Sequence record: OQ870566.1
From: Escherichia phage SR02
Strand: one strand, 5' to 3'
Length of the DNA: 64,000 bases
Shown: one piece after another, positions 17,271 to 31,097 of the stretch
Position numbering within the stretch: position 1 is the first letter of the stretch
Layout of the letters: the number at the start of each line of letters is the position of its first letter
Position numbers and translations under genes: made by a program
The notes under the pieces: model-generated
Seen by the model: the letters and a program-made list of their open reading frames with translations, nothing else
What the model was told of the DNA's origin: nothing
Database searches by the model: none

Positions 17271-17469
17271 TAGGGTGATTGTATTCCTTACTCCCTTTTA
17301 GCTCGTTGTGATGCGTTACAGGCCGTTAAATGGTGCTTTACAAGCCTTTTCCTACGATGTATCACGCGCGCCCGTTCCTTTACCTCCTGATTTCTTCCGG
17401 TGTCCTATCAACAATAAAATAAATTCCTTTATAAAACAGTGAGATATAAAATAATTTGAAAAAAGGGTA

Positions 17470-17497
17470 TTGACAGGGTTTTCCTGTATAGTAATAT
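17470..17497 (+). promoter_or_regulatory. sigma70-type early promoter (TTGACA, 16 bp, TAATAT)
   Basis: Consensus hexamers read directly. Confidence 0.6.
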
Positions 17498-17704: not shown

Positions 17705-18126
17705 AAGCACTCAGTCAGCGATGACTTAAAACATCCCCGCTCTTTAAAAACTTATCATCTTGCCCTTTCGCAAAGATACACGCGAGATAAGGGAAAAGAA
17801 TAAAAGAAGATGATAAAAAAGAGATTGCAAACGTGGTTAAGATAGTCCATACTAACCACAAGTTAACAAAACAACGTTAACTAGTTCCCAAATCAACGTA
17901 TCGCGGGAAAGGTGGCACATAGTGCGGCGAGTAGTTCAGGGTTAGGCGTCCTGTTAATGAATCAGTAAGCCTTCAATGCCATAGTGATTAGCAGACACTT
18001 TAAAAGGCTAACGCTCTTTAACAATATGAATCATAAGTTAAGCCTCACCGCTTAATCTTCAACCCAATAAAGCGGGTTGATATATCCTCCCAATAGCGGG
18101 AACGACGAAAAAAGATTAAAAAGTGG

Positions 18127-18155
18127 TTGACAGCGAAAACAACATGATTCATACT
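18127..18155 (+). promoter_or_regulatory. sigma70-type early promoter (TTGACA, 17 bp, CATACT)
   Basis: Paralogous to the promoter at 17676 (TTGACA.CGAAAACA.C.TGATTCATA.T.AGCACTCA). Confidence 0.55.
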
Positions 18156-19079
18156 GAGCACTCACTAAGCAAATCACCGCTTCAGTGAAAAGCGTAACAA
18201 CGGCTAACAGTTGCATAGTGTGAGAAAGCACACTGATAGATTTACCGCTCTTTAATAATTTAAACATTCTCCTATATCGGTTGATTATGTTAGATGATAA
18301 TAACCATCGGATAACATACCAGATAAAACGGTGTAAGATTCTCTAAACTATCAGAGAAAACAATCTTACAATCCCTTACCGGAAACGTCACCACTGATAA
18401 ACGGATTCATTGAGTACACGCAACGACTGAAGCTAATCGCCCACGGTTAAGGGTAGCGGCGGTCATCGCTAACAAGGTGCTACAGTGAAAGAAGTTAATC
18501 AGGGTAGACAAGCCCGACGAATTAACGCTCAATTGAGAGCGGCGGTGAATGGTTAAAAAGTGGCAAATTGCTATTTAACAATAAGGTTTAGTGTGAACGT
18601 TTACGATGTGAACGGCTTGAGATTCATCACAAGATGAAAGTACATAGTCGGTTTATGTAGTAAACTTGCCGAAAGATATAAAACGTCAGAACATTAGACG
18701 GTCAATGACTCTTTCACAATAGCATCCCGTTGTGGGCGATGGCTAGTGATTGAGAGTTGATACAAAAGGATAGGCGAGAGCGAAAGCAAAGTAGACGATA
18801 TTGCCGACGGTTACAATAAACGTAACTAATTAGAGTCGGACGCACTGCCTTATTGTGATGATTGATCATCGCTATCAGGTCGGCTTCGTTTATAGCGACT
18901 AATTAAAGATACCAGATGAAACATCACGGATAAGGGGGCGGCAAGGTTAACTCCTGATAAGACCGCCCCGCTTACCTATAACTACTTAACAACGAGTGGT
19001 TATAGTTAAGTTAATAGTGACTTAAACAAGCTCATAGAGAGCGGGGCAATAGCGCCCTTACAATTGAAAGGTGAATATC

Positions 19080-21249: not shown

Positions 21250-21329
21250 TAGGAATATAGCCCCCTCTTTTAGTACTATGACGCTCTTTCTGTAGCGTCG
21301 TGCCCTCTCCCCATTTGAAGCTTCCGCAT

Positions 21330-21352
21330 AGCCGCCTTTGAGCGGCTTTTTG
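21330..21352 (+). terminator. rho-independent terminator
   Basis: Hairpin AGCCGC...GCGGCU followed by UUUUU. Confidence 0.5.
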
Positions 21353-21414: not shown

Positions 21415-21441
21415 GCCCCGGCTACGGCTGGGGCTTTTTTT
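21415..21441 (+). terminator. rho-independent terminator
   Basis: Hairpin GCCCC-GGCUACGGCU-GGGGC followed by UUUUUUU. Confidence 0.6.
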
Positions 21442-21466
21442 GTATCTATTGTATAGGGAATTTTCT

Positions 21467-22820: not shown

Positions 22821-23006
22821 ATGAAGCCTGGGCTTTTATTCTCTTTAAAAGATACGCTTTATATTCGAACCAATTCAACTACTGAAAACTATGTGAAGTG
22901 TGTCAATGTTATTAGTGGAACCTTACAACCTTTAGATAAGGATGCAATTTGCTGGGTAAGGGATGACCTTCACATAACCAATATAGAGGCTAAAGATGAA
23001 GATTGA
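22821..23006 (+). CDS. small protein, member of a paralog family (61 aa)
   Basis: Shares KxGDxF/xLxTG-type pattern with ORFs at 22996, 23255, 26973, 27224, 27475, 28185. Confidence 0.35.
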   Translation: MKPGLLFSLKDTLYIRTNSTTENYVKCVNVISGTLQPLDKDAICWVRDDLHITNIEAKDED

Positions 23007-23250
23007 TCTTAAGGTAAATGAACCCTCTCTGTGTGTTGGTGATCTTAAACTTGGAGATGTATTCCAAATAAGGGAAACACGAGCAGATTTCTACATGGTT
23101 GTTCAACTGTTTAGGTCACAGGTTGAGGAGACTAAACCTTCTGATGGTGGTTGTGTCGTCCTCAGTCTAACAAACAAGCAAGTCCTTAAGCTCAGCCCAA
23201 AAAGTAAGGTTGTTCTTCTTCATAACGTTGTAATTACCAATAAAGGGTAA
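22996..23250 (+). CDS. small paralog-family protein (84 aa)
   Basis: LKLGDVFQIR motif; see paralog family. Confidence 0.45.
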   Translation: MKIDLKVNEPSLCVGDLKLGDVFQIRETRADFYMVVQLFRSQVEETKPSDGGCVVLSLTNKQVLKLSPKSKVVLLHNVVITNKG

Positions 23251-23254
23251 GTAG

Positions 23255-23470
23255 ATGGAAATTAAAGTATCTGAACACAAGTATGCAAACATAGAAGATA
23301 TTAAGAGTGGTGATGTCTTCTCTTACGATAAACGTTTCTGGCTGATGCTAGATGATGATCTCTCTAATGGACTACGTAGGGCTGCTGATCTAAGCACCGG
23401 TCATGTTGGTAACTTCAACCCATCATCCACTGTTATGCCTCGTCCTGATTTGCATTTGACTCAAAAGTAA
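23255..23470 (+). CDS. small paralog-family protein (71 aa)
   Basis: IKSGDVFSYD and DLSTGHVGN motifs. Confidence 0.45.
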   Translation: MEIKVSEHKYANIEDIKSGDVFSYDKRFWLMLDDDLSNGLRRAADLSTGHVGNFNPSSTVMPRPDLHLTQK

Positions 23471-23977
23471 CACCGACTTATAGCCCTTGTGTCTATCAGA
23501 GGGCTATGTGAGGGTGTTCCTCATTAACTTATTAATTCAGGCATATGCCACACCGCTAGGGAGAGCTTGCTCAAACATCCGGTGCTAGACTAAAACCTGT
23601 TAATTTTCGAAAGACTTTCTGATATGTAGGGGTACATATTAGTTTGGGATTCAGGAGACTTCCTAGGGGTAGGGAGTCTTCACCAGTTGGAATAAGAGAT
23701 AGCTCTAGAACCTGAACTCTTAGGCAGAGAAGGTCGGCAATGAGTACGCGGTCAGGATTAGTCTACTGACTAGGGCTATCCCTTATATCAACTGGCAATA
23801 ATGCCTCCACTAACAAAGAGAGATAGGTATGAAAGTATCAACCAAACGTATGAACCGCCCTGAACGTATGGATGCAGTAGCTAACGGTGCTCTGAAACTG
23901 GAAGGCTTCTGGATTCATGCAATGTCAGCCATCCGTAGTAAGCAAGGTAATTGGACATATAACAGTTAATAATTAAA

Positions 23978-24009
23978 AGGCTGCCCAATCGGGTGGCCTT
24001 TGTTGTTTT
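23978..24009 (+). terminator. rho-independent terminator
   Basis: Hairpin AGGCUGCC-CAAUCG-GGUGGCCU followed by UUGUUGUUUU; near-identical hairpin at 50138. Confidence 0.6.
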
Positions 24010-24108
24010 AGGTAAATCACCTTTAATTGCTTTTCCCATCTGCATTCCACATGAATGAGTGCAGCAGTGATTGGGGTGGTTTACCTAAACTAACAAGAGG
24101 AAGCTAAA

Positions 24109-24285
24109 ATGTCTAAGCAAACAATCAAACATACGCAAGCTGGTTACTCTTATGTTAACTCTCCTTGCTGTGGTGCTCGTGTTAATCTGGTTAAAGAAGA
24201 GGTTCGTATCGTTCAGCGTGGCGCTACTGTTGTTCGTTCATGTTGCGTCTGTGGTAATGATATTTTTATTAAAGGTAAAGTATGA
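24109..24285 (+). CDS. small zinc-ribbon protein (58 aa)
   Basis: Manually translated; SPCCGARV...SCCVCGND Cys pairs; AGAGGA RBS. Confidence 0.4.
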   Translation: MSKQTIKHTQAGYSYVNSPCCGARVNLVKEEVRIVQRGATVVRSCCVCGNDIFIKGKV

Positions 24286-24533
24286 AAAACTTTCAAGCTG
24301 CACCAATCACTAAAGTGATCGAAGTTGACGGTGTAATGATGACTGTTCCTCTGAACACTCGTTACATTGCAATTGACAAGATGGGCTATGTATGGGCTTG
24401 GAAGATCAAGCCTAGTTATAACGCACTGTTTGATGAGTTTGTTTGTACTGGTACTTACAGTCCTACATTCTTGGGTTTATTTGGAGAGTTTGATGGTAAG
24501 CATAAAATCATCACTCTCCCTGCTTGTGCTTGA
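24282..24533 (+). CDS. hypothetical protein (83 aa)
   Basis: ATGA overlap with previous ORF. Confidence 0.45.
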   Translation: MKNFQAAPITKVIEVDGVMMTVPLNTRYIAIDKMGYVWAWKIKPSYNALFDEFVCTGTYSPTFLGLFGEFDGKHKIITLPACA

Positions 24534-24540
24534 GGTTATT

Positions 24541-24705
24541 ATGTTCAAGTGGTTTAAACGTTTCTTCCATCTCCATGATTGGGAGACAATAAAAGAAATT
24601 CGTTTACACATACATAATGAGATTGGTCAAATAGAAGACACAGGTACTCGTTATATACTTCGATGTAAAACATGTGGTCATATCACCAAGCGAGATATGA
24701 TCTAA
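24541..24705 (+). CDS. small Cys-containing protein (54 aa)
   Basis: ATG after TGAGGTTATT RBS context; CKTCGH motif. Confidence 0.3.
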   Translation: MFKWFKRFFHLHDWETIKEIRLHIHNEIGQIEDTGTRYILRCKTCGHITKRDMI

Positions 24706-24713
24706 ATAATTCT

Positions 24714-24789
24714 GCGCTCTTAGCTCAATGGATAGAGCAGTAGCCTTCTAAGCTATTGGTTACAGGTTCGAGTCCTGTAGGGCGCACCA
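24714..24789 (+). tRNA. tRNA-Arg (anticodon UCU)
   Basis: 76-nt cloverleaf folded by hand: acceptor GCGCTCT/AGGGCGC, D-stem GCTC/GAGC, anticodon stem GTAGC/GCTAT with loop CTTCTAA, T-arm ACAGG-TTCGAGT-CCTGT, encoded CCA. Confidence 0.85.
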
Positions 24790-24911
24790 CATTTAGGGCT
24801 AGTATGGGTGCGGCACCAGAGTTAGTGTATCCCTGTTGAGGCGAGTGCTTTTATAACAGTGGGAATTACTTTCTTAGTGAGCTTCTGGTTCGATTCCAGA
24901 TAGTCCACCAA
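24790..24911 (+). other. tRNA-like 3' element (canonical T-arm GGTTCGATTCC plus CCA) lacking foldable acceptor and anticodon arms
   Basis: T-arm UCUGG-UUCGAUU-CCAGA and ...UCCACCA read directly; no complementary 5' acceptor or anticodon stem found by hand. Confidence 0.3.
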
Positions 24912-24928
24912 ATTAAGTGAGAGGTATC

Positions 24929-25105
24929 ATGGGTAATAAACTTTTAGTTATCTCCATAACTGAAGTCAATCAAAAACTACAATCAAAAGTTAGAACCCTA
25001 GTCTTCTTAGATGAGGAAGAAGGTAGGGATTTTATTGAGAATTCCGGCAAAACAATAATCTCTGTTGAACTGGCCGAGGTTATGTGCTCTTACAAAGCTT
25101 TCTAG
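24929..25105 (+). CDS. hypothetical protein (58 aa)
   Basis: ATG with GAGAGG RBS. Confidence 0.35.
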   Translation: MGNKLLVISITEVNQKLQSKVRTLVFLDEEEGRDFIENSGKTIISVELAEVMCSYKAF

Positions 25106-25114
25106 GAGGTAATT

Positions 25115-25414
25115 ATGAGTTGGGGTGGTGTAATATCCTTAATCTGTATCTTCCTTGTCTGTATAGCCCTTACAGGCTGCGTACAGAGTCGTCCTGATGG
25201 ATGGTGTGCAGTAGCAGTGGAAGGTGTTTGTGTTTCTCGCTGGCATAAAGGTAAGAAGGTTCCTTCTGGTGAAATTGATATGCGCTGGAACGGAGCAACC
25301 TGCTCTAATGCTAACCCTTCTATCAACGAAGAGAAATCTACACCGGATAATGTTGTGATTGATACAGCGTTGTGGTGTGGTGGCTCTGTAACAACAACCG
25401 GTAAGGAGTGGTAA
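25115..25414 (+). CDS. Cys-rich lipoprotein (99 aa)
   Basis: Strong RBS TAGGAGG; signal peptide with lipobox LTGC (ISLICIFLVCIALTGC); several further Cys. Confidence 0.6.
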   Translation: MSWGGVISLICIFLVCIALTGCVQSRPDGWCAVAVEGVCVSRWHKGKKVPSGEIDMRWNGATCSNANPSINEEKSTPDNVVIDTALWCGGSVTTTGKEW

Positions 25415-25415
25415 T

Positions 25416-25664
25416 ATGACAGCTCATTATTGGAATACAAAGAAGCTTCTTGAAGAGATGGCTGGGGGTAGTAGAGTACAGCTAATCTCTATGCTTCGAA
25501 TGGATGCTCGCTCTTTACGTTTTCAAGTAAAGATTGGTAACTTTAGTGATGGTCTTTATTACACACTGAAGGAAAGAATTAAGAAGACTCACTTTATTAT
25601 GTACGGAATCAAACCGAGAACGTATGTTAACTACATGTATTGGGATACATGCTACGATAATTGA
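25416..25664 (+). CDS. hypothetical protein (82 aa)
   Basis: Tightly following ORF. Confidence 0.45.
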   Translation: MTAHYWNTKKLLEEMAGGSRVQLISMLRMDARSLRFQVKIGNFSDGLYYTLKERIKKTHFIMYGIKPRTYVNYMYWDTCYDN

Positions 25665-25671
25665 GGTTATT

Positions 25672-25893
25672 ATGTTATTTGAAGCTAAGCAAACATTACC
25701 AGTAGTTCCTTTGTCTACACTTCTTAGTGGGAGTGCTTTTAGACATGATAATGGTTTTTGGATTAAGGGCGACCAAGAGGTTGGAGGATATATTACCTGC
25801 ATCAACATCTGCAACGGCGTTGTTGACGGATTTCGTCCAGCCGCTGAAGTCACTCCTCAATCCAACGCAAAGGTTGTAGGTTTGGTATATTAA
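25672..25893 (+). CDS. hypothetical protein (73 aa)
   Basis: ATG after TGAGGTTATT RBS context. Confidence 0.4.
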   Translation: MLFEAKQTLPVVPLSTLLSGSAFRHDNGFWIKGDQEVGGYITCINICNGVVDGFRPAAEVTPQSNAKVVGLVY

Positions 25894-25902
25894 GGAGTTC
25901 AT

Positions 25903-26076
25903 ATGAGCTGTTTTGGTGGCGGTGAAGTAGATGACGATGATGACATGGAATCCAACGGTACATGTCCTGATTGTGGGTGTGAGACATGGGATGGGGTGTC
26001 TGTCTATCCTGTCTGTAGTTACTCACCAGTGATTTGTAAAACATGTGGAGATCAACCTTGTGATCAGTCCTGTTAG
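25903..26076 (+). CDS. small acidic Cys-rich protein (57 aa)
   Basis: AAGGAG RBS; CPDCGC...CKTCGDQPC clusters. Confidence 0.45.
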   Translation: MSCFGGGEVDDDDDMESNGTCPDCGCETWDGVSVYPVCSYSPVICKTCGDQPCDQSC

Positions 26077-26077
26077 T

Positions 26078-26293
26078 ATGTTAATTGTTTACCTGATAGG
26101 TGTGGTGTTATCAGGTGTGTTTGTTAAGGTTGTTGATATTAAAGATGATCAAGTCTTCAGACATTGGAGCGGATATCCAAACCTCAGCAAAATAGCAATT
26201 GTCCTTTTCTTGTGGCCTATCATTGTTGCGTTGCTTATAATTATAGGACTTTGGACTTTGCTATGGGAGTTAATTCTTCCTGTCAAAAAGTAA
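26078..26293 (+). CDS. small membrane protein with two TM helices (71 aa)
   Basis: Hydrophobic segments LIVYLIGVVLSGVFV and IAIVLFLWPIIVALLIIIGLW. Confidence 0.45.
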   Translation: MLIVYLIGVVLSGVFVKVVDIKDDQVFRHWSGYPNLSKIAIVLFLWPIIVALLIIIGLWTLLWELILPVKK

Positions 26294-26652
26294 GAGCTTA
26301 TCGTGAAGGATTCTTACGAGAGTCCTTTGAGATAGGACTTCAGATCTCCTATCAAACTAACATTCATGTAACTAGCCCATAAGGGCGTTACCCTTTAATA
26401 ACCCAGCCCACTAAGGGGGCGGGAGTTTAGTGCTGGATTGGCTTTACGCTTATTCCTACAAAGGCAACCGATTGTTAGATCTTACATGCAACATTAATTA
26501 ATAGGATAAGGGAGGATTCGTCCCCTCCCCCTATTCATAAACTATTAGGAGAGTACATTAGCTGATTAGCTGTAGAAGGTAGGCCGATATCTACAGCGTG
26601 GCCCAGAGCTAGTGTGCTCCCCTGATAGTTTTAACATTTAATTGGAGGATGT

Positions 26653-26964
26653 ATGAAAGCACGAAGAACTATATGGACTCCGATGCAGATTGAAAATCTT
26701 CGGAGACTAATCAAAGAGTACTCGGTTCAAGAAGTTGCTCAGATTATGAATGTAACGGAGAATGCAGTTAATACAGCTTGCACTAAGTTCGGAATATCAA
26801 GAGCTGTAATCCGAGTTAAGTGGTCTAAAGAAGAGGACCAGTTCCTTATCCGTAATGCTGGGTTCATGTCTATTCAGAGAATGGCTGACATGCTCGGTAG
26901 AAGTTATGCTGCTGTACAGAACAGGGCATGTATGCACCTTAACATTAGCCTCAAACTTAAATAG
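26653..26964 (+). CDS. putative DNA-binding protein with duplicated HTH-like motif (103 aa)
   Basis: Two W/S-anchored helix-turn-helix-like repeats (WTPMQIENLRRL...; WSKEEDQFLIRN...). Confidence 0.5.
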   Translation: MKARRTIWTPMQIENLRRLIKEYSVQEVAQIMNVTENAVNTACTKFGISRAVIRVKWSKEEDQFLIRNAGFMSIQRMADMLGRSYAAVQNRACMHLNISLKLK

Positions 26965-26972
26965 GAATCAAT

Positions 26973-27227
26973 ATGAAAGTTAACGAATTGAACAAAACTA
27001 CCAAGACAGTGAAACTGCACACTCTGAAAAAGGGTGATACATTCCGTTTAGAGGAGAATGGACCAATCCACATGGTCTGCACTGCTGAATCTACTAATTG
27101 GGTGGAAGTTGCACGAGATCGAGTAGTGTGTGTCAGGCTGGAAGATGGTAATCTGAGTGGTCCGGTCGAGGGTATTCCTGTTATCCCTGTTAAAGTTGAA
27201 GCTAACGTTATTAAGGGTTCTAAATGA
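26973..27227 (+). CDS. small paralog-family protein (84 aa)
   Basis: LKKGDTFRLE motif. Confidence 0.5.
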   Translation: MKVNELNKTTKTVKLHTLKKGDTFRLEENGPIHMVCTAESTNWVEVARDRVVCVRLEDGNLSGPVEGIPVIPVKVEANVIKGSK

Positions 27228-27469
27228 AAATCATCCCTAAGAAAAAGGATAATACAGTAAAATTGGAAACAATTATTCCTGGAAATCCTTTCGTGGTTCA
27301 GAACGGAAGCGCCTCTCCTCAGTATTACATGAGGGTTGAAAATGCTTCTTGTAACATCCGTATAGCCAGTGGTTGGGTTCCTGTGGTAAACCTTTCCACA
27401 GGTGTACTATCTGTTAAAGGTCTTGACGATCAGGTAGAAATGATTCGTATGTCAGTGGTTCAGGAGTAG
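27224..27469 (+). CDS. small paralog-family protein (81 aa)
   Basis: VVNLSTGVLSV motif. Confidence 0.5.
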   Translation: MKIIPKKKDNTVKLETIIPGNPFVVQNGSASPQYYMRVENASCNIRIASGWVPVVNLSTGVLSVKGLDDQVEMIRMSVVQE

Positions 27470-27474
27470 TGCAT

Positions 27475-27723
27475 ATGAGCATTATTAACATTAAAGTTAA
27501 AGACAAAGAGGAAAAAATCCTCCGTGTCAGAGATCTAAATATGTCAGATGTGTTTACTCTCCAAGAGTGCCAGAATCAAAAGGTTTATATGATGACAGCT
27601 AAAAGCAGGGGTTGTCAACCTGCTGGAGCTGTTAACTTAGGCACTGGAGAACTGCGTGTCATCTCTGGTGATATGGTTGTTGGTGAGAAGTTTATTAAGG
27701 CTGAAATCATCTTAACTTCGTAG
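27475..27723 (+). CDS. small paralog-family protein (82 aa)
   Basis: AGGAG RBS; VNLGTGELRVISGD motif. Confidence 0.5.
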   Translation: MSIINIKVKDKEEKILRVRDLNMSDVFTLQECQNQKVYMMTAKSRGCQPAGAVNLGTGELRVISGDMVVGEKFIKAEIILTS

Positions 27724-27954
27724 GAAAACAAATGAGACGTAAAGCATATTCTTATGACGATATGATTAACCAGAAAGGCTTCGGTCAACGACAGCCTGAC
27801 GGTTCAATTATCTGGTTCGTAAACGGACAGAAAAAGGTAGCTAAATAAGCCCTCTTCTCTCCTCCTTTTAGTACTATGACGCCTCTCTGTGGGCGGCCCA
27901 ATTTGCGTAGGGAATTCCCTCTACGCAGCCATGACTTTTTAAGGAATTTCCCAT

Positions 27955-28188
27955 ATGTCTAAAGTAAGCGCAATCAATGCAATCCGTCAACCGTTCCAGT
28001 TCCAATCCAAATCAACCCAAACCTTCAGTGAGCCTAAGCAGATTCGCTTGGGTGGCACGGAGAAAACTGTGTTCGATCTGGCTAAAAACAAGAGCGTTAC
28101 TGTAGTTGATGGTGGCACTCTGGTTAACGTTTCACATCGTATCCGTACTGGCAAAACTGCCAAAGATCGTGCCAAGAAAGGTGAATGA
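27955..28188 (+). CDS. hypothetical protein (77 aa)
   Basis: ORF after a conserved intergenic element. Confidence 0.45.
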   Translation: MSKVSAINAIRQPFQFQSKSTQTFSEPKQIRLGGTEKTVFDLAKNKSVTVVDGGTLVNVSHRIRTGKTAKDRAKKGE

Positions 28189-28454
28189 TGAAAGTAAAAA
28201 GAGCAAATGCTCCAATACCAAAAAAGGTCAGGATTGATCAAACGAAACCAGGTGAAGTTGTTCGATTTATTGATAGTGAAAAACTCTACCTTGTGAGTAA
28301 ACTGACCAATTTAGCATCTATCAGTGTTAACGATCCACTGATGCCACAACTCGTATACATAACCAATCTTGATACTGGTAATGTTATTGACCTACGACCA
28401 GATACTCAGGTTGTTAGAGTTAAAGCTGAATGTGAATACATTGAGGATGTATGA
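28185..28454 (+). CDS. small paralog-family protein (89 aa)
   Basis: KPGEVVRFID and NLDTGNVIDL motifs. Confidence 0.5.
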   Translation: MMKVKRANAPIPKKVRIDQTKPGEVVRFIDSEKLYLVSKLTNLASISVNDPLMPQLVYITNLDTGNVIDLRPDTQVVRVKAECEYIEDV

Positions 28455-28918
28455 TGATCAAGATTAACAAGAACGGATGGTTGCATAAGTTCAACAAAAC
28501 CATGTCAGGTTTACCCAACTCTCATTGGGATAATATGACTAACTTTTGCGAATACTTCTGGCGTACAGTGATGCACTTCATTGCACTGACGCTGCTGTTA
28601 GGGGTTGTATACGCTGCACTGTCCATGATTGGTGGCTCTTTCCTTGGACATGAGAATTTTTTGTCATTCAATTGGTGGACATGGTTCACTGCTCCTGCTC
28701 TTGGTGCCTTATCTTTGGCTGCTTTGGCTGGTGTAGTGTTTGGTGGTGGTTGGGCATTTTATGAACTTCGTGGAATATACCGTGACCACCGAACTAGCAC
28801 ATATGAAACTCGTGCTGAAAAGAAACGACGTAAGAAAGAGCGTCGTGATTCAAACTGGATTGTTGTGATGTATCGTAGCAAGAAAGAGAAATACTGTCCT
28901 TCAGTTAGGGTAGAGTAA
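28451..28918 (+). CDS. membrane protein (155 aa)
   Basis: Three hydrophobic helices; basic C-terminus. Confidence 0.5.
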   Translation: MMIKINKNGWLHKFNKTMSGLPNSHWDNMTNFCEYFWRTVMHFIALTLLLGVVYAALSMIGGSFLGHENFLSFNWWTWFTAPALGALSLAALAGVVFGGGWAFYELRGIYRDHRTSTYETRAEKKRRKKERRDSNWIVVMYRSKKEKYCPSVRVE

Positions 28919-29133
28919 TGATAACACTTGTGTCGATCGTTTATAGAATACACTATCGTCTAGACAAAGGTAAAACCTATAAGTGCAAGAGTAAGACAGG
29001 CAATAGATGCTCTGTAGAAAACAACTCTGGTCAATGGGTGGATGTACCTTGTTGTTGGTTCAGGAAAGATTTGACTAACAAAGAAATTGACGAAATCCTT
29101 AGTGATGATTTTGTAAAATCAGGTGATTTTTAG
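28918..29133 (+). CDS. hypothetical protein (71 aa)
   Basis: Overlap-coupled ORF. Confidence 0.4.
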   Translation: MITLVSIVYRIHYRLDKGKTYKCKSKTGNRCSVENNSGQWVDVPCCWFRKDLTNKEIDEILSDDFVKSGDF

Positions 29134-29368
29134 TTGTAGTAACGCCTATAGCCTTCTTCGGAGGGCTATGTGAGTTATTCTGACTCAACTAACCTAATCT
29201 TAATATATTTCCCGTATGGGGCCGATGCTAGGGCGAGGAATACTCCTCAAACATCCGTCGGATAGATATTTTAAGAGCAGGTTATCCACAGATATTGGGT
29301 AATATCTTTTTGGATTTAAAGCTTGACTCTTTTCGGAGAGTCCTTTTTTAAATTCAATGAGAGGAAAT

Positions 29369-29521
29369 ATGTCTAAATTAGATTTAAAACTGCTAGCAGC
29401 AGCGGTAGTGATTTGTGCACTAGCACTGGTAACGCAGAGAACATCTGGATTTATTCAGTGTTTCTTTTCTGGGCAATCCACTTATCAGTGGGTTATTGAC
29501 GAGTGTAAACAACAGGAGTAA
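29369..29521 (+). CDS. small hydrophobic protein (50 aa)
   Basis: GAGAGGAAA RBS; N-terminal hydrophobic helix. Confidence 0.3.
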   Translation: MSKLDLKLLAAAVVICALALVTQRTSGFIQCFFSGQSTYQWVIDECKQQE

Positions 29522-29523
29522 GT

Positions 29524-29886
29524 ATGAATACACGTCCCATCAAGGGCAACGTTAATATTGAAACTCTGAACAAGGTTGCATCAAACCTCGGTGGAATGTC
29601 CAACGATGAGCTTGAGCAAGAACTTGCTTGGATTGCAAATGGTATCAAAGTTGCTAAAGGTAAGATTACTCGTGAGCAAAGCAACATGAAAGCTCACAAG
29701 TATATCATCCGTCGTGCAAATGTGTTACCAGAGCGGGTTGTACATCTTGCCCGTAAAAACTATGCAGAAGCAAAGAAAGCTCTGGAAGAAGCTACTTTCC
29801 AGAAGCATCAATTTATGAACAACTATAGAAACTTCCGAGATATTCTTTATATCCGTAAGTCGATTGAGTTGATTAAAAACCAATAG
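29524..29886 (+). CDS. hypothetical protein (120 aa)
   Basis: ORF with RBS. Confidence 0.5.
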   Translation: MNTRPIKGNVNIETLNKVASNLGGMSNDELEQELAWIANGIKVAKGKITREQSNMKAHKYIIRRANVLPERVVHLARKNYAEAKKALEEATFQKHQFMNNYRNFRDILYIRKSIELIKNQ

Positions 29887-29897
29887 AGGTTGGTATA

Positions 29898-31097
29898 ATG
29901 TTTCCAGTAACATTAGAAGATACTGAAGGTAATGTTTTAACGGTCAACCCTCCTTGTTATGGGTTCCTTCAGCTTCGCAACTATAACGGTGGCGTTGATG
30001 AAGACGATGACGAATATGATGACTACTTCGACCCTAACATGTATGAGGCAACTCATGGGTGGAATATGCACGTTCGAGTGTGGCATGAAGAAGCTAACGT
30101 TCGTAGTGCTGATGGGGAAGAGTTCCTGTTAAGCCGAGAGATGGATATGTGTAAAATCAAGCATATCTGGAACTCTGGAACTCATATGAAGATGTTAGGT
30201 TTTAGACGTTGGCGTGATGAAAAGCATGTAGCTGAAGCTTTAAGTTGGTGTTCGTATGAAGATGAAGACACACCTCCCAAGAATAACATTGAACGTTGGA
30301 ACGACAAAAACCCTGAACATCGAACCACACCTCGTGCTGTACTGGAAGCTATGGAAGCATTTGTGGACAAAGGTCGTCCCTCCTGTTTACGCTGGCACGA
30401 TAAAGGTTTTATGGGGGTAGCAACTGAGAACATTCCTGCTGATCGTTGTCTGTTCTATTTAATGTTAGACCGAACCTTCTATTGTGAAGATGAAGAGAGT
30501 CAAGTTGAAACCTTCCTTCATAAATGGTTGGTTGAGGGCTGGACAATCCTTCAGGCTTATGTTTACTCACGAATGGTTAGCACTTACACTAACCTCTTAG
30601 GGGAAACGAAAGCAACTCTGGTTGGTAATGATTGGGATGCTTGTATTTTCCCAGCGTCACTGTTTACAGTCGGCATGGCTGATAAATACGCTGAAGCATT
30701 TCAAGTTCCTTGGCGTCAACAGTCATATAGAGATGGGTGTGGTCATTTCCGTGATGAAGATTTTAAGTGGATTCATTATGAGAATGATGAAACAGCAGAG
30801 TTACGAGTGAACAACTCAATGTTCTTGCCGGTTATGCACCCTGATCTAGTAAAAGATGAGTCAGAAATACTCAAAGGTGACAACCTTCTGGTTACCTTTG
30901 CTCGTCGGGTATCTAAAGATGAAAGAACAGCTGACAGATTAGTCTACGCTTATCGCGCTGAGACTAAAGATATGTTCAACATCTACAACATTATTCAGCG
31001 ATTTAGTAGTGGAACTCTGGACCAAAGTTCGGAGTATTCAGTGATTCCATCCTCTGAGTGGGATGGTATTATGAGCGGATTATTTTTAGGAAAATAA
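29898..31097 (+). CDS. hypothetical protein (399 aa), first gene of the amidoligase island
   Basis: Long ORF; acidic N-terminal segment; no recognised motif. Confidence 0.6.
   Translation: MFPVTLEDTEGNVLTVNPPCYGFLQLRNYNGGVDEDDDEYDDYFDPNMYEATHGWNMHVRVWHEEANVRSADGEEFLLSREMDMCKIKHIWNSGTHMKMLGFRRWRDEKHVAEALSWCSYEDEDTPPKNNIERWNDKNPEHRTTPRAVLEAMEAFVDKGRPSCLRWHDKGFMGVATENIPADRCLFYLMLDRTFYCEDEESQVETFLHKWLVEGWTILQAYVYSRMVSTYTNLLGETKATLVGNDWDACIFPASLFTVGMADKYAEAFQVPWRQQSYRDGCGHFRDEDFKWIHYENDETAELRVNNSMFLPVMHPDLVKDESEILKGDNLLVTFARRVSKDERTADRLVYAYRAETKDMFNIYNIIQRFSSGTLDQSSEYSVIPSSEWDGIMSGLFLGK

Follow-up and report, generated by a model that had tools for sequence, protein, structure and literature searches.

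A repeated structured RNA module in the early region of a phiEco32-like phage, one copy of which has complementarity to the host nrdD leader in its arm

The locus

The window (the whole stretch of 64,000 nucleotides of Escherichia phage SR02 that was analysed) belongs to a phiEco32-like Kuravirus, in which the early-gene strand is the + strand. Two non-coding stretches of the early region each contain one copy of an RNA element, referred to here as Family A, at 23466-23695 (copy 1) and 29138-29349 (copy 2), which have in common a core of approximately 155 nt. The features of the two copies, and of the segment that follows copy 1, are listed below.

23466-23584, +, core of copy 1 (CM match and pair counts), with an AGUAAC box that contains the upstream stop codon
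23479-23508, +, P1 of copy 1
23510-23522, +, P2 of copy 1
23540-23549, +, P3 of copy 1
23551-23555 and 23580-23584, +, 5' and 3' strands of P4 of copy 1
23556-23562, +, J4/5 of copy 1, CUAGGGA
23563-23572, +, P5 of copy 1
23573-23579, +, J5/4 of copy 1, AAACAUC
23619-23681, +, arm of copy 1, with hairpins P7' (23619-23642) and P8' (23654-23681) (RNAalifold)
23682-23800, +, mosaic 3' module forming a long, irregular hairpin of 113 nt ahead of a 46-aa gene (BLAST and fold)
23829-23969, +, gene of the 46-aa protein, a phi32_112 homolog (phrog_13305, E 1e-35), apart from the RNA elements
23976-24011, +, intrinsic terminator after the small genes, placed at 23976-24001 in the terminator scan
29138-29291, +, core and long-range helix of copy 2 (CM and alignment)
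29147-29171, +, P1 of copy 2
29172-29186, +, P2 of copy 2
29190-29203 and 29271-29284, +, 5' and 3' strands of P6 of copy 2
29211-29220, +, P3 of copy 2
29222-29227 with 29256-29261, +, P4 of copy 2
29228-29234, +, J4/5 of copy 2, CUAGGGC
29235-29248, +, P5 of copy 2
29249-29255, +, J5/4 of copy 2
29290-29349, +, 3' end of copy 2, with P7 (29290-29307), an A/U-rich spacer, and terminator P8 (29325-29342) with U6

Fold and covariation of Family A

The core consists of the hairpins P1, P2, and P3, the last of which is small, with a loop RUAU, followed by P4, which gives way to a 7x7 internal loop of invariant sequence (CUAGGGN / NAACAUC), closed by P5, whose own loop is hypervariable. A covariation analysis across related phages, as proposed in the original prediction, recovered compensatory pairs, together with conservation in the relatives. 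In an alignment of 34 sequences, 100% of the 665 pair cells are paired, in comparison with 28-42% in the slid controls, and two-sided changes occur at 7 of the 20 pairs. When a third lineage (L077) was added, in a set of 13 sequences, 100% of the 257 pair cells were paired and 10 of the 20 pairs were compensatory, a result matched by none of 500 shuffles. The compensatory changes span P1 to P5, across the paralogs and three phage lineages; the fourth pair of P2, for example, is U-A, C-G, or G-C, depending on the lineage. The U.G pairs in P1 and P4 are possible on the + strand only. At the 5' end, P2 can form only when P0, a pairing that extends over the stop codon of the upstream gene, does not, and both are supported by covariation.

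Family A is a structured RNA module, previously undescribed, read from the early-gene (+) strand. The assignment of both families to non-coding structural or regulatory RNA is upheld for Family A by the compensatory changes, the strand-specific G.U pairs, and the invariant internal loop, while for Family B it is plausible but weaker. The core has the conserved, structured, and covarying organization of the sensor domain of a riboswitch or attenuator, and its invariant internal loop resembles a binding pocket. Family A has no match at or above the gathering threshold in Rfam 15, in which tRNA-Arg is the sole family above that threshold in the whole window; at E<=10, positions 23400-24100 yield terminator-like noise alone, and 29100-29400 nothing.

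The two copies end differently. In copy 1, P7' and P8' both have the loop UAGGGGUA, and their pairing is kept through one- and two-sided changes in 16 copy-1-type sequences (RNAalifold); no U-tract follows them, and neither copy 1 nor the L077 copy has a terminator directly 3' of the element. In copy 2, the P8 terminator, with its U6 and A/U-rich spacer, is kept in every lineage (19 of 19 aligned sequences), and 14 nt separate it from the ribosome-binding site of the gene that follows. The outer-helix pairs of P6 never vary, and the linker UCCACAG is both unpaired and invariant. No conserved promoter was found in copy 2, where the one sequence resembling a promoter (29180-29209, in agreement at 9 of 12 positions) is conserved in neither 7-11 nor SU7.

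Paralogy and distribution

A CM built from copy-2-type sequences alone matches copy 1 at 23466-23613, with 51.1 bits and an E value of 5.7e-11. The sequence GAGGGCTATGTGAG has exactly two occurrences, one at 23499 and the other at 29161 (shuffles: mean 0.04, none reaching 2), as does the combination GCTAGGGNGAG..CTCAAACATCCG, at 23555-23581 and 29227-29257 (shuffles: 0). These double occurrences bear out the boxes originally reported as common to the two stretches, although the homology runs beyond those three boxes, to approximately 220 nt.

The module is present in Kuravirus, Suseptimavirus, the 7-11-like Moazamivirus, and one unclassified contig, and 36 unique copies were gathered. Between the window phage and the 7-11-like phages, the element has a nucleotide identity of 70-74%, while the flanking protein is only 34-53% identical. 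The element starts at the stop codon of any upstream gene, or a few bases off, and at least eight different upstream genes abut the same AAGUAAC. The mosaic junctions coincide exactly with the element borders, and the flanking gene cassettes vary between phages.

The nrdD-complementary arm of copy 2

29265-29310, +, arm with complementarity to the leader of host nrdD mRNA (E. coli genome matches and duplex prediction)
29282-29290, +, perfect DnaA box TTATCCACA, the only one in the window, inside the nrdD arm

The 3' arm of copy 2, which lies directly ahead of the terminator, shows complementarity to the 5' leader of the enterobacterial nrdD, from about -12 to -45 relative to the AUG, adjoining the Shine-Dalgarno. 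This antisense segment, host-derived or host-directed, had been overlooked in the original prediction. The arm matches a single locus, antisense to nrdD and directly 5' of its start codon, in 5326 of the 5426 E. coli genomes; the nrdD leader is treated here as transcribed on the basis of the promoter layout read in the sequence. The duplex predicted for Kuravirus with E. coli has 36 pairs and a dG of -48.5 kcal/mol (shuffles: -14.9 +/- 3.6), and that for 7-11 with Salmonella has 23 pairs, 19 of them contiguous, at -34.4 kcal/mol. The 7-11-like copies form 19-34 predicted pairs with the leader, and the copy 2 duplexes differ from shuffles with z values of -4 to -10. At two of the sites where the arm departs from its host counterpart (A>G and C>U), pairing with the nrdD mRNA is retained in the form of wobbles.

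The host block CUCUGUGGAUAACCUGUUCU is conserved across the nrdD leaders of E. coli, Salmonella, and Klebsiella. The flank GAAAUUGGG, specific to E. coli, is matched in the E. coli phages, and the Salmonella-phage copies do not track the Salmonella-specific flanks. In a reciprocal search of 50,697 phage records, matches were confined to Kuravirus and Suseptimavirus. The nrdD arm is absent from copy 1 and the L077 copy, and the arm of copy 1, used as a negative control, gave no E. coli match at a threshold as loose as E<=10. No nrdD is present in the phage itself. Most of the arm is paired within the RNA itself, in P6 and P7, so it would need to be opened in order to reach a target. The pairing in P6 alone could be the reason for the conservation of the arm flanks, and the similarity to nrdD could be left over from host DNA captured in the past.

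The DnaA box, which is A/T-rich on both sides, forms the invariant center of the arm (20 of 20 copy-2-type sequences), and the host nrdD leader has two DnaA boxes of its own. Together with the mosaic junctions located exactly at the element borders, this would suit an element acting at the level of the DNA, in which the box is a DnaA site, as part of an origin or as a transcription roadblock, and the conserved blocks are anchors for the recombination of cassettes. Such a role is highly improbable, however, given that one perfect box in 64 kb is within the chance expectation, that no cluster of relaxed boxes lies nearby (the nearest relaxed box is approximately 870 bp off), and that the box is absent from copy 1 and the L077 copy; the compensatory changes, the G.U pairs, and the matching flanks are also left unexplained by DnaA binding. 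A DnaA-dependent origin was rejected on account of the single perfect box and the lack of a box cluster.

The segment downstream of copy 1

The stretch that begins with copy 1 was originally described as approximately 500 nt of non-coding sequence, with no ORF over 20 codons up to a terminator at 23978. While the terminator was confirmed, the conserved 46-aa gene refutes the absence of ORFs, and the non-coding part is only 358 nt long (23471-23828) because this gene begins at 23829. The ORF has an ATG start and a ribosome-binding site, is homologous to gp135 of phage 7-11, and corresponds to phi32_112 in the phiEco32 annotation. No similarity was detected between the 46-aa protein and N. In the annotation of 7-11, a Q-like antiterminator adjoins the phi32_112 homolog.

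The long hairpin upstream of this gene (fold z -4.9), a separate module in the 3' third of the stretch that the original prediction had not noted, has an apex, at 23706-23772, that is approximately 80% identical to the gene 24/N leader of P22-like phages, just 3' of nutL; the matches include phages L, BTP1, and SE1 (BLAST, with the annotation of phages L and BTP1 inspected). In other Kuraviruses, two different hairpins take its place. In lambda, the N-leader hairpin between nutL and N is an RNase III-sensitive site. As in the N/24 leader of the lambdoid and P22-like phages, the similar segment caps a long hairpin that closely precedes a small gene, but the lower stems are unlike in sequence, and the likeness is limited to this mosaic 3' module, excluding Family A itself.

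The presence of this hairpin after copy 1 would fit a role of the elements in the processing or stability of a polycistronic early transcript, as in T7, in which the hairpins set the cleavage sites and the protective 3' ends, and the nrdD-like stretch is anciently captured host DNA, kept only as the P6 helix. In the T7 early polycistronic mRNA, the RNase III sites are single hairpins of approximately 50-60 nt. By position and hairpin shape, Family A resembles these sites in that irregular hairpins containing internal loops recur, in mutually similar form, between the early genes of a podophage that uses the host RNA polymerase early, but differs in being a multi-helix domain of 155-220 nt. The strictly intergenic position, starting at the stop codons of varied upstream genes, the exchange of flanking cassettes, and the invariant outer pairs of P6 are consistent with processing. 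This reading is unlikely nevertheless, as a six-helix core with an invariant internal loop would be unnecessary at a processing site, and neutral captured DNA should have decayed over a divergence as great as that between Kuravirus and Moazamivirus, seen in their proteins. Neither the invariance of the unpaired linker nor the match to the E. coli-specific flank would be expected of such DNA.

Family B

21258-21299, +, Family B copy 1, a C-rich tract, the 18-mer (21267-21284), and the hairpin GACGC..GCGUC (21280-21299)
27849-27928, +, Family B copy 2, a pyrimidine tract (27849-27864) and the 18-mer (27865-27882)
27880-27895 and 27904-27928, +, hairpins of Family B copy 2, CGCC..GGCG and a second one
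17283-17310, +, marginal Family-B-like stretch, a pyrimidine tract plus CUUUUAG only

The 18-mer CTTTTAGTACTATGACGC is repeated exactly, as had been predicted, although at 21267 and 27865 rather than at 21262 and 27866. No third match was found with up to 3 mismatches, and no shuffle reaches 2. The weaker copy reported near 17290 does share the pyrimidine tract and CUUUUAG, but with more than 4 mismatches in 18 it is marginal. The layout of Family B, a C/U-rich tract, the invariant UUUUAGUACUAUGAC, and a GC hairpin, is found after stop codons and just 5' of terminator hairpins, which lie at 21330-21347 and 21415-21434 in the case of copy 1; the hairpin 27904-27928 of copy 2 was not called a terminator by the scan. 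The Family B hairpin is kept with differing sequences, its carriers are Kuravirus and Suseptimavirus only, and neither copy has any match in E. coli, even at E<=10. Family B is a short module unrelated to Family A; our guess is that it is a cis-acting RNA signal linked to 3'-end formation.

A lambda-type nut site was considered for Family B and rejected, with only approximately 8 of 13 positions in agreement with the rrn/lambda boxA (by eye). The hairpin loops, UCUUUCUGUA and UCUCUGUG, are pyrimidine-rich and not GNRA-like. The promoter motif of the phiEco32 sigma factor gp36, tAATGTAtA (PMC4281155), has 17 matches in the window (<=1 mismatch), none of them in the Family A or Family B elements.

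Both families are found after a stop codon and 5' of terminator hairpins (21330, 21415, 23976, and 29325), which may point to the cis-acting control of read-through. Here, the core would sense a protein or small molecule, or act on the RNA polymerase like the HK022 put RNA, deciding whether early transcription passes the terminator of each element and thus timing the downstream blocks, with Family B as a second class of signal. No strong promoter was found downstream of approximately 18155 in a scan of the window, so the early genes beyond this point need read-through. The pocket-like internal loop, the alternative P0 and P2 pairings, and the Q-like antiterminator annotated in 7-11 are consistent with this type of control.

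The HK022 put RNA consists of two adjacent stem-loops, and P1 and P2, 1-2 nt apart, are similar in layout. Like put and the lambda/P22 nut sites, the elements are structured parts of the nascent early transcript placed 5' of terminators, and in Family B a CUCUUU-type tract, with a hairpin approximately 8 nt later, roughly recalls boxA-boxB. Unlike put and nut, however, most copies of Families A and B immediately precede the terminator to be overridden. No convincing anti-terminator pairing between the core and the terminator was found: it could reach at most 4-5 bp (only AAGAG/CUCUU, of 5 bp, could compete) and is not conserved in 7-11. In copy 1 and the L077 copy, a terminator directly 3' of the element is lacking. 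The 36-nt complementarity to nrdD would also be unexplained, and control of read-through appears rather doubtful.

Copy 2 as a candidate small RNA

The best explanation that we can propose from the sequence, held tentatively and at somewhat less than an even chance, is that copy 2 gives rise to a phage sRNA with a terminator at its end and nrdD as its target. Copy 2 has the extended conserved complementarity near the ribosome-binding site of the target that is expected of a base-pairing sRNA, as well as a Rho-independent terminator with a U-tail, which copy 1 lacks. The Family A module would be made within long early transcripts, and the copy at 29138-29349 would end at its own intrinsic terminator, with 5' processing leaving an RNA of approximately 210 nt. 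The arm would then pair over about 33-36 nt with the host leader, immediately 5' of the Shine-Dalgarno, starting at the single-stranded UCCACAG and then invading helix P6. This may block the translation of nrdD, form a long duplex that RNase III could cut, or both, and either outcome would leave the infected host with a lower level of its anaerobic ribonucleotide reductase. The conserved core may act as a scaffold, providing stability, a platform for proteins, or both, common to copies with other arms. The proposal leaves the function of this core unexplained.

The terminator-ended base-pairing sRNAs of the enterobacteria, derived from 3'UTRs or from phages and prophages, include CpxQ, SroC, DicF, and AgvB/AsxR. 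Copy 2 resembles these molecules in being located 3' in a transcript that also carries coding sequence, at its end, in its Rho-independent terminator with a U-run and a preceding A/U-rich spacer, and in the conserved single-stranded stretch within a region complementary to a host translation-initiation region. It differs in the length of the complementarity, 33-36 nt, far beyond the usual seeds, and in its large six-helix scaffold with an invariant internal loop, which has no counterpart among them. This candidate sRNA also comes from a virulent phage.

A broader reading, possible although we would not favor it, is that Family A represents a new class of modular regulatory RNA, in a virulent coliphage lineage and its Salmonella-phage relatives, in which a conserved six-helix scaffold carries swappable "guide" arms, one of them a 33-36-nt antisense that silences nrdD. 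To our knowledge, very little of the regulatory RNA repertoire of virulent phages has been charted, and the known phage-derived sRNAs come mostly from prophages. Family A combines unusually clear covariation with the lack of an Rfam counterpart, and nrdD provides a concrete and testable host target, related to the supply of dNTPs under gut-like anaerobic conditions. If a conserved scaffold does carry an exchangeable arm, this layout would show how host-directed phage RNAs evolve, and might serve again as a design. Should the link with nrdD turn out to be a relic, the invariant loop of the scaffold points to an RNA-protein or RNA-ligand interaction, common to two phage families found in therapy collections. 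In one relative, pSal-SNUABM-01, a ProQ/FinO protein is annotated.

Genomic context of the elements

The window belongs to a phiEco32-like podophage, and its positions 23000-30000 are 90-95% identical to many Kuravirus genomes. Every gene between 16 and 31 kb lies on the + strand, and a promoter scan recovered strong sigma-70-type promoters at 17470, 17676, and 18127, the same region in which the early promoters have been located (PMC4281155). The elements analyzed here are the following:

23466-23695, + strand: copy 1 of Family A, a folded RNA module
29138-29349, + strand: copy 2 of Family A
29265-29310, + strand: arm of copy 2, the 3' part after the core
21258-21299, + strand: copy 1 of Family B, a short module formed by an 18-mer and a hairpin
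27849-27928, + strand: copy 2 of Family B

The two gene-free gaps that contain the Family A copies are both present, unannotated, in phiEco32 and WFI101126, with 358 nt between phi32_113 and phi32_112 (gap 1), and 235 nt between phi32_91 and phi32_90 (gap 2). No tRNA or tmRNA gene was found inside the elements, nor any gp36 promoter motif in those of Family A or B, while a tRNA-Arg(UCU) gene is located at 24714-24789, between the two Family A copies. A further stretch of approximately 1.27 kb (17804-19070), with no + strand ORF of at least 40 aa, is located directly downstream of the strong early promoters. This stretch may be a long leader or an additional non-coding RNA, and a comparable gene-free gap of approximately 1.3 kb appears in the SU7 annotation.

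Architecture of the Family A module

The original prediction had identified a set of boxes shared by two intergenic stretches, at positions that match exactly those recovered here, and their recurrence is far above chance in a comparison with shuffled sequences. The boxes are real, but three are too few to describe the homology, which is that of one module of approximately 220 nt present twice. The first stretch had also been thought to be free of ORFs over 20 codons, but it contains a conserved 46-aa gene at 23829-23969 (phrog_13305), homologous to gp135 of phage 7-11.

Structural features of Family A
P1: AUAGCCY...RGGCUAU, common to copies 1 and 2
P2: GAGN...NCUC, common to copies 1 and 2
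A/U-rich linker: common to copies 1 and 2
P3: 3-bp stem with loop RUAU, common to copies 1 and 2
P4 and P5: P4 helix of 5-6 bp, which leads to the internal loop CUAGGGN / NAACAUC, closed in turn by P5
P7, then P8: last hairpins; P8 is an intrinsic terminator in copy 2 only

A long-range helix of copy 2, P6 (UAACCU/AGGUUA plus UCUUAA/UUAAGA), surrounds P3-P5, with covariation in its inner half and an outer half that never varies. In copy 1, RNAalifold also recovered P0 (AACACC/GGUGUU, with one compensatory pair), which competes with P2 and overlaps the stop codon of the upstream gene, and the hairpins P7' and P8', which covary and both carry the loop UAGGGGUA. This loop is found at 23630-23637 and 23664-23671, in two successive hairpins, and resembles the CUAGGG in the internal loop (23556-23562).

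Conservation and covariation of Family A

A total of 36 unique Family A copies were gathered from the phage database, IMG/VR, and metagenomes, including 16 of the copy-1 type and 20 of the copy-2 type. Four of the latter come from 7-11-like Salmonella phages (Moazamivirus), which belong to a different family, and have a single Family A copy each in the regions fetched. The covariance model and the pair counts bore out the expectation of an RNA structure conserved across related phages, with compensatory changes. A model built from the copy-2-type sequences alone recovers copy 1 at 51 bits (E 5.7e-11), and finds no third copy in the window.

When 34 distinct sequences were aligned on the basis of the model, the helices P1, P3, P4, and P5 formed standard pairs in 665 of the 665 cells, with two-sided changes in seven of the 20 pairs, in comparison with 28-42% pairing in slid controls. 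This alignment was fitted to the model, and thus leans toward the structure, although the sequences are short and unambiguous. In P2, which lies outside the covariance model, the fourth pair is U-A in copy 2 of Kuravirus, C-G in copy 2 of Suseptimavirus, and G-C in copy 1. The loop of P5 is free to change (eleven variants were seen in close relatives), in contrast to the invariant internal loop, and the nucleotides flanking P5 (C..A, A..G, or A..A) are inferred to form a non-Watson-Crick pair. On the opposite strand, the U.G pairs of P1 and P4 would become C.A, and the constraint therefore acts on the + strand RNA. Between the window phage and the 7-11-like phages, the non-coding element is 70-74% identical, and the phi32_92 protein encoded directly upstream, 34-53%.

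A divergent copy of a third lineage (55 bits, E about 1e-12) was found at 3019-3170 of L077. The scan of genome collections yielded this contig, which is binned as a Flavobacterium MAG and has 38% GC and many small ORFs; those tested had no PHROG or Pfam matches. Here, P1, P2, and P4 differ entirely in sequence, with all their pairs kept, while GCUAGGGC, AAACAUC, and the P3 loop are unchanged, a pattern that identifies P3 and P4, the internal loop, and P5 as the conserved heart of Family A. With this lineage included, the compensatory pairs rise to 10 of 20, a value reached in none of 500 shuffles. A second contig, L078, labelled as a Peptococcaceae MAG, is Kuravirus DNA with one Family A copy (189 bits) and one of Family B, and looks misbinned or contaminated.

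The search of Rfam, at the gathering threshold and at E<=10, returned nothing relevant to the elements, and no Family A copy was found in the more distant relative Aeromonas phage APT65. Pattern scans of IMG/VR outside the phiEco32 and 7-11 groups yielded mostly chance or coding matches, and the candidate loci L007/L037 and L020/L038 did not hold up against the covariance model. Family A is almost certainly a genuine structured RNA family, not described before.

Complementarity of the copy-2 arm to the host nrdD leader

When copy 2 was compared with 5426 complete E. coli genomes, a single matching locus was found, in 5326 of them. Positions 29269-29310 match the treC-nrdD spacer at 86-95%, in antisense to nrdD (read in the direction of nrdD, the host has cccaatttctgtggataacctgttcttaaaaatatGGAGcgatcATG), which means that the + strand RNA of the phage is the complement of the leader of nrdD over the interval of approximately -12 to -45. 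The complementarity ends adjoining the Shine-Dalgarno sequence. The promoter signals visible upstream (FNR- and NrdR-like boxes and a TATAAT) would predict a leader of approximately 135 nt. As controls, the copy-1 arm and both Family B copies were searched against E. coli as well, and had no match at a threshold as lax as E<=10. The treC-nrdD spacer has no Family A fold. Conversely, a search of 50,697 phage records with the E. coli leader recovered only Kuravirus and Suseptimavirus, together with one misfiled Salmonella contig.

Full-length RNAduplex energies did not discriminate, given that the method permits unlimited loops, and were replaced by duplexes of the 45-nt arm with the leader.

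Predicted duplexes between phage arms and host nrdD leaders
Kuravirus arm and E. coli leader: 36 pairs, dG -48.5 kcal/mol (shuffles -14.9 +/- 3.6)
L075 arm and Salmonella leader: 34 pairs, dG -42.9 kcal/mol
7-11 arm and Salmonella leader: 23 pairs, 19 contiguous, dG -34.4 kcal/mol

The block CUCUGUGGAUAACCUGUUCU of the host leader is kept in E. coli, Salmonella, and Klebsiella, and in the core of the Kuravirus and 7-11 arms, the A>G and C>U differences from the host form wobbles with the mRNA, so that pairing is kept. The flank GAAAUUGGG, specific to E. coli and absent from Salmonella and Klebsiella, is matched by the E. coli phages; host-specific co-variation between the 7-11-type arms and the Salmonella-specific leader flanks was sought, and not found.

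The reading tentatively favored, ahead of the others, is that copy 2 would be a terminator-ended phage sRNA antisense to the host nrdD, which would lower NrdD, although activation of nrdD is also conceivable. No report of these elements or of an nrdD-targeting sRNA was found in the literature; a paper on the prophage sRNA svsR, which mentions Kuraviruses, is unrelated to them. No nrdD gene of the phage's own was found. No conserved sigma-70 promoter lies within or ahead of the elements. A role of Family A as a read-through switch is possible, if unlikely.

The arm is composed of J4/6 (the segment joining P4 and P6), the 3' strand of P6, the stretch UCCACAG, which is unpaired and invariant, and the first (5') half of P7. 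The sequence AAGAGCAGG is also part of the arm. Given that the 3' strand of P6 lies within the nrdD-complementary arm, the 5' strand resembles the nrdD leader itself. The flanks of the arm could be preserved through P6 pairing alone. A processing or stability element carrying a relic of host DNA is a reading that we consider rather doubtful.

The invariant center of the arm also matches the DnaA box perfectly (TTATCCACA), and no other perfect box occurs in the window. One such box is the chance expectation and no cluster was found in the phage; an element acting at the DNA level, through DnaA or recombination, is highly improbable. In each of E. coli, Salmonella, and Klebsiella (L079 1188-1330, L080, and L081), the nrdD leader has two perfect DnaA boxes, TGTGGATAA, the proximal one within a 20-nt block conserved in the three genera. 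On the antisense strand of E. coli, this block is followed by a hairpin and a U-run, and a host cis-antisense RNA at the nrdD leader is conceivable. In pSal-SNUABM-01, a 7-11-like phage with one Family A copy, an RNA chaperone with a ProQ/FinO domain is annotated (L045 9708-10436).

Junctions and mosaic context

The genes upstream of Family A vary by phage. For copy 1 (23466-23475 in the window, and the equivalent junctions in L001-L073), these contexts number at least eight, with genes unrelated to each other, and the junction is invariably AAGUAAC, usually the source of the upstream stop codon UAA. This point marks a mosaic (cassette-exchange) boundary.

On the 3' side of P8', copy 1 is followed by a hairpin module that varies by phage, with three types unrelated to each other. 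In the window, this is a long hairpin module of 113 nt (23682-23800, z -4.9), the apex of which is approximately 80% identical to the gene 24/N leader of P22-like phages, directly downstream of the annotated nutL. The N leader hairpin of lambda acts as an RNase III site and controls the translation of N. We take the 23682-23800 module to be the leader hairpin of the 46-aa gene, distinct from Family A.

In phage 7-11, a gene-free gap of 710 nt (L042 32134-32846), matched by a 616-nt gap in pSal-SNUABM-01, adjoins the phi32_112 homolog and contains two tRNA-like 3' ends (GGTTCGAATCC...CCACC and GGTTCGACTCC...) not called as tRNAs by ARAGORN.

Family B

The Family B 18-mer is an exact repeat, as had been predicted, although its positions are 21267 and 27865, while the third copy proposed near 17290 is marginal. 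Both copies start 10-20 nt 3' of a stop codon, and consist of a C/U-rich tract (CCCCCU or CCCUCUUCUCUCCUCC), an invariant UUUUAGUACUAUGAC, and a GC hairpin, which differs by copy (GACGC/GCGUC vs CGCC/GGCG); one variant has a shifted pairing register and is still paired. Copy 1 is followed by terminator hairpins at 21330 and 21415, while copy 2 has another hairpin 3' of the first (27904-27928), with a T-run further on. Copy 1 is conserved in Kuravirus, and the conservation of copy 2 extends to Suseptimavirus over its initial 59 nt (90-93%). The 7-11-like phages yielded neither copy, and the upstream genes vary by phage. Family B was rejected as a gp36 promoter (no gp36 motif), and makes a poor sigma-70 promoter in the promoter scan and a poor boxA/boxB site.

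The Family B tract may mimic the anti-Shine-Dalgarno sequence CCUCC, and G runs that resemble the Shine-Dalgarno sequence abound in Family A; the G-runs of copy 1 (the UAGGGGUA loops and CUAGGG) are potentially complementary to the C-rich tract CCCCCU of Family B copy 1. Directly after the double terminator 3' of this Family B copy, the sequence TATTGTATA (21447-21455) has one mismatch in relation to the gp36 promoter element.
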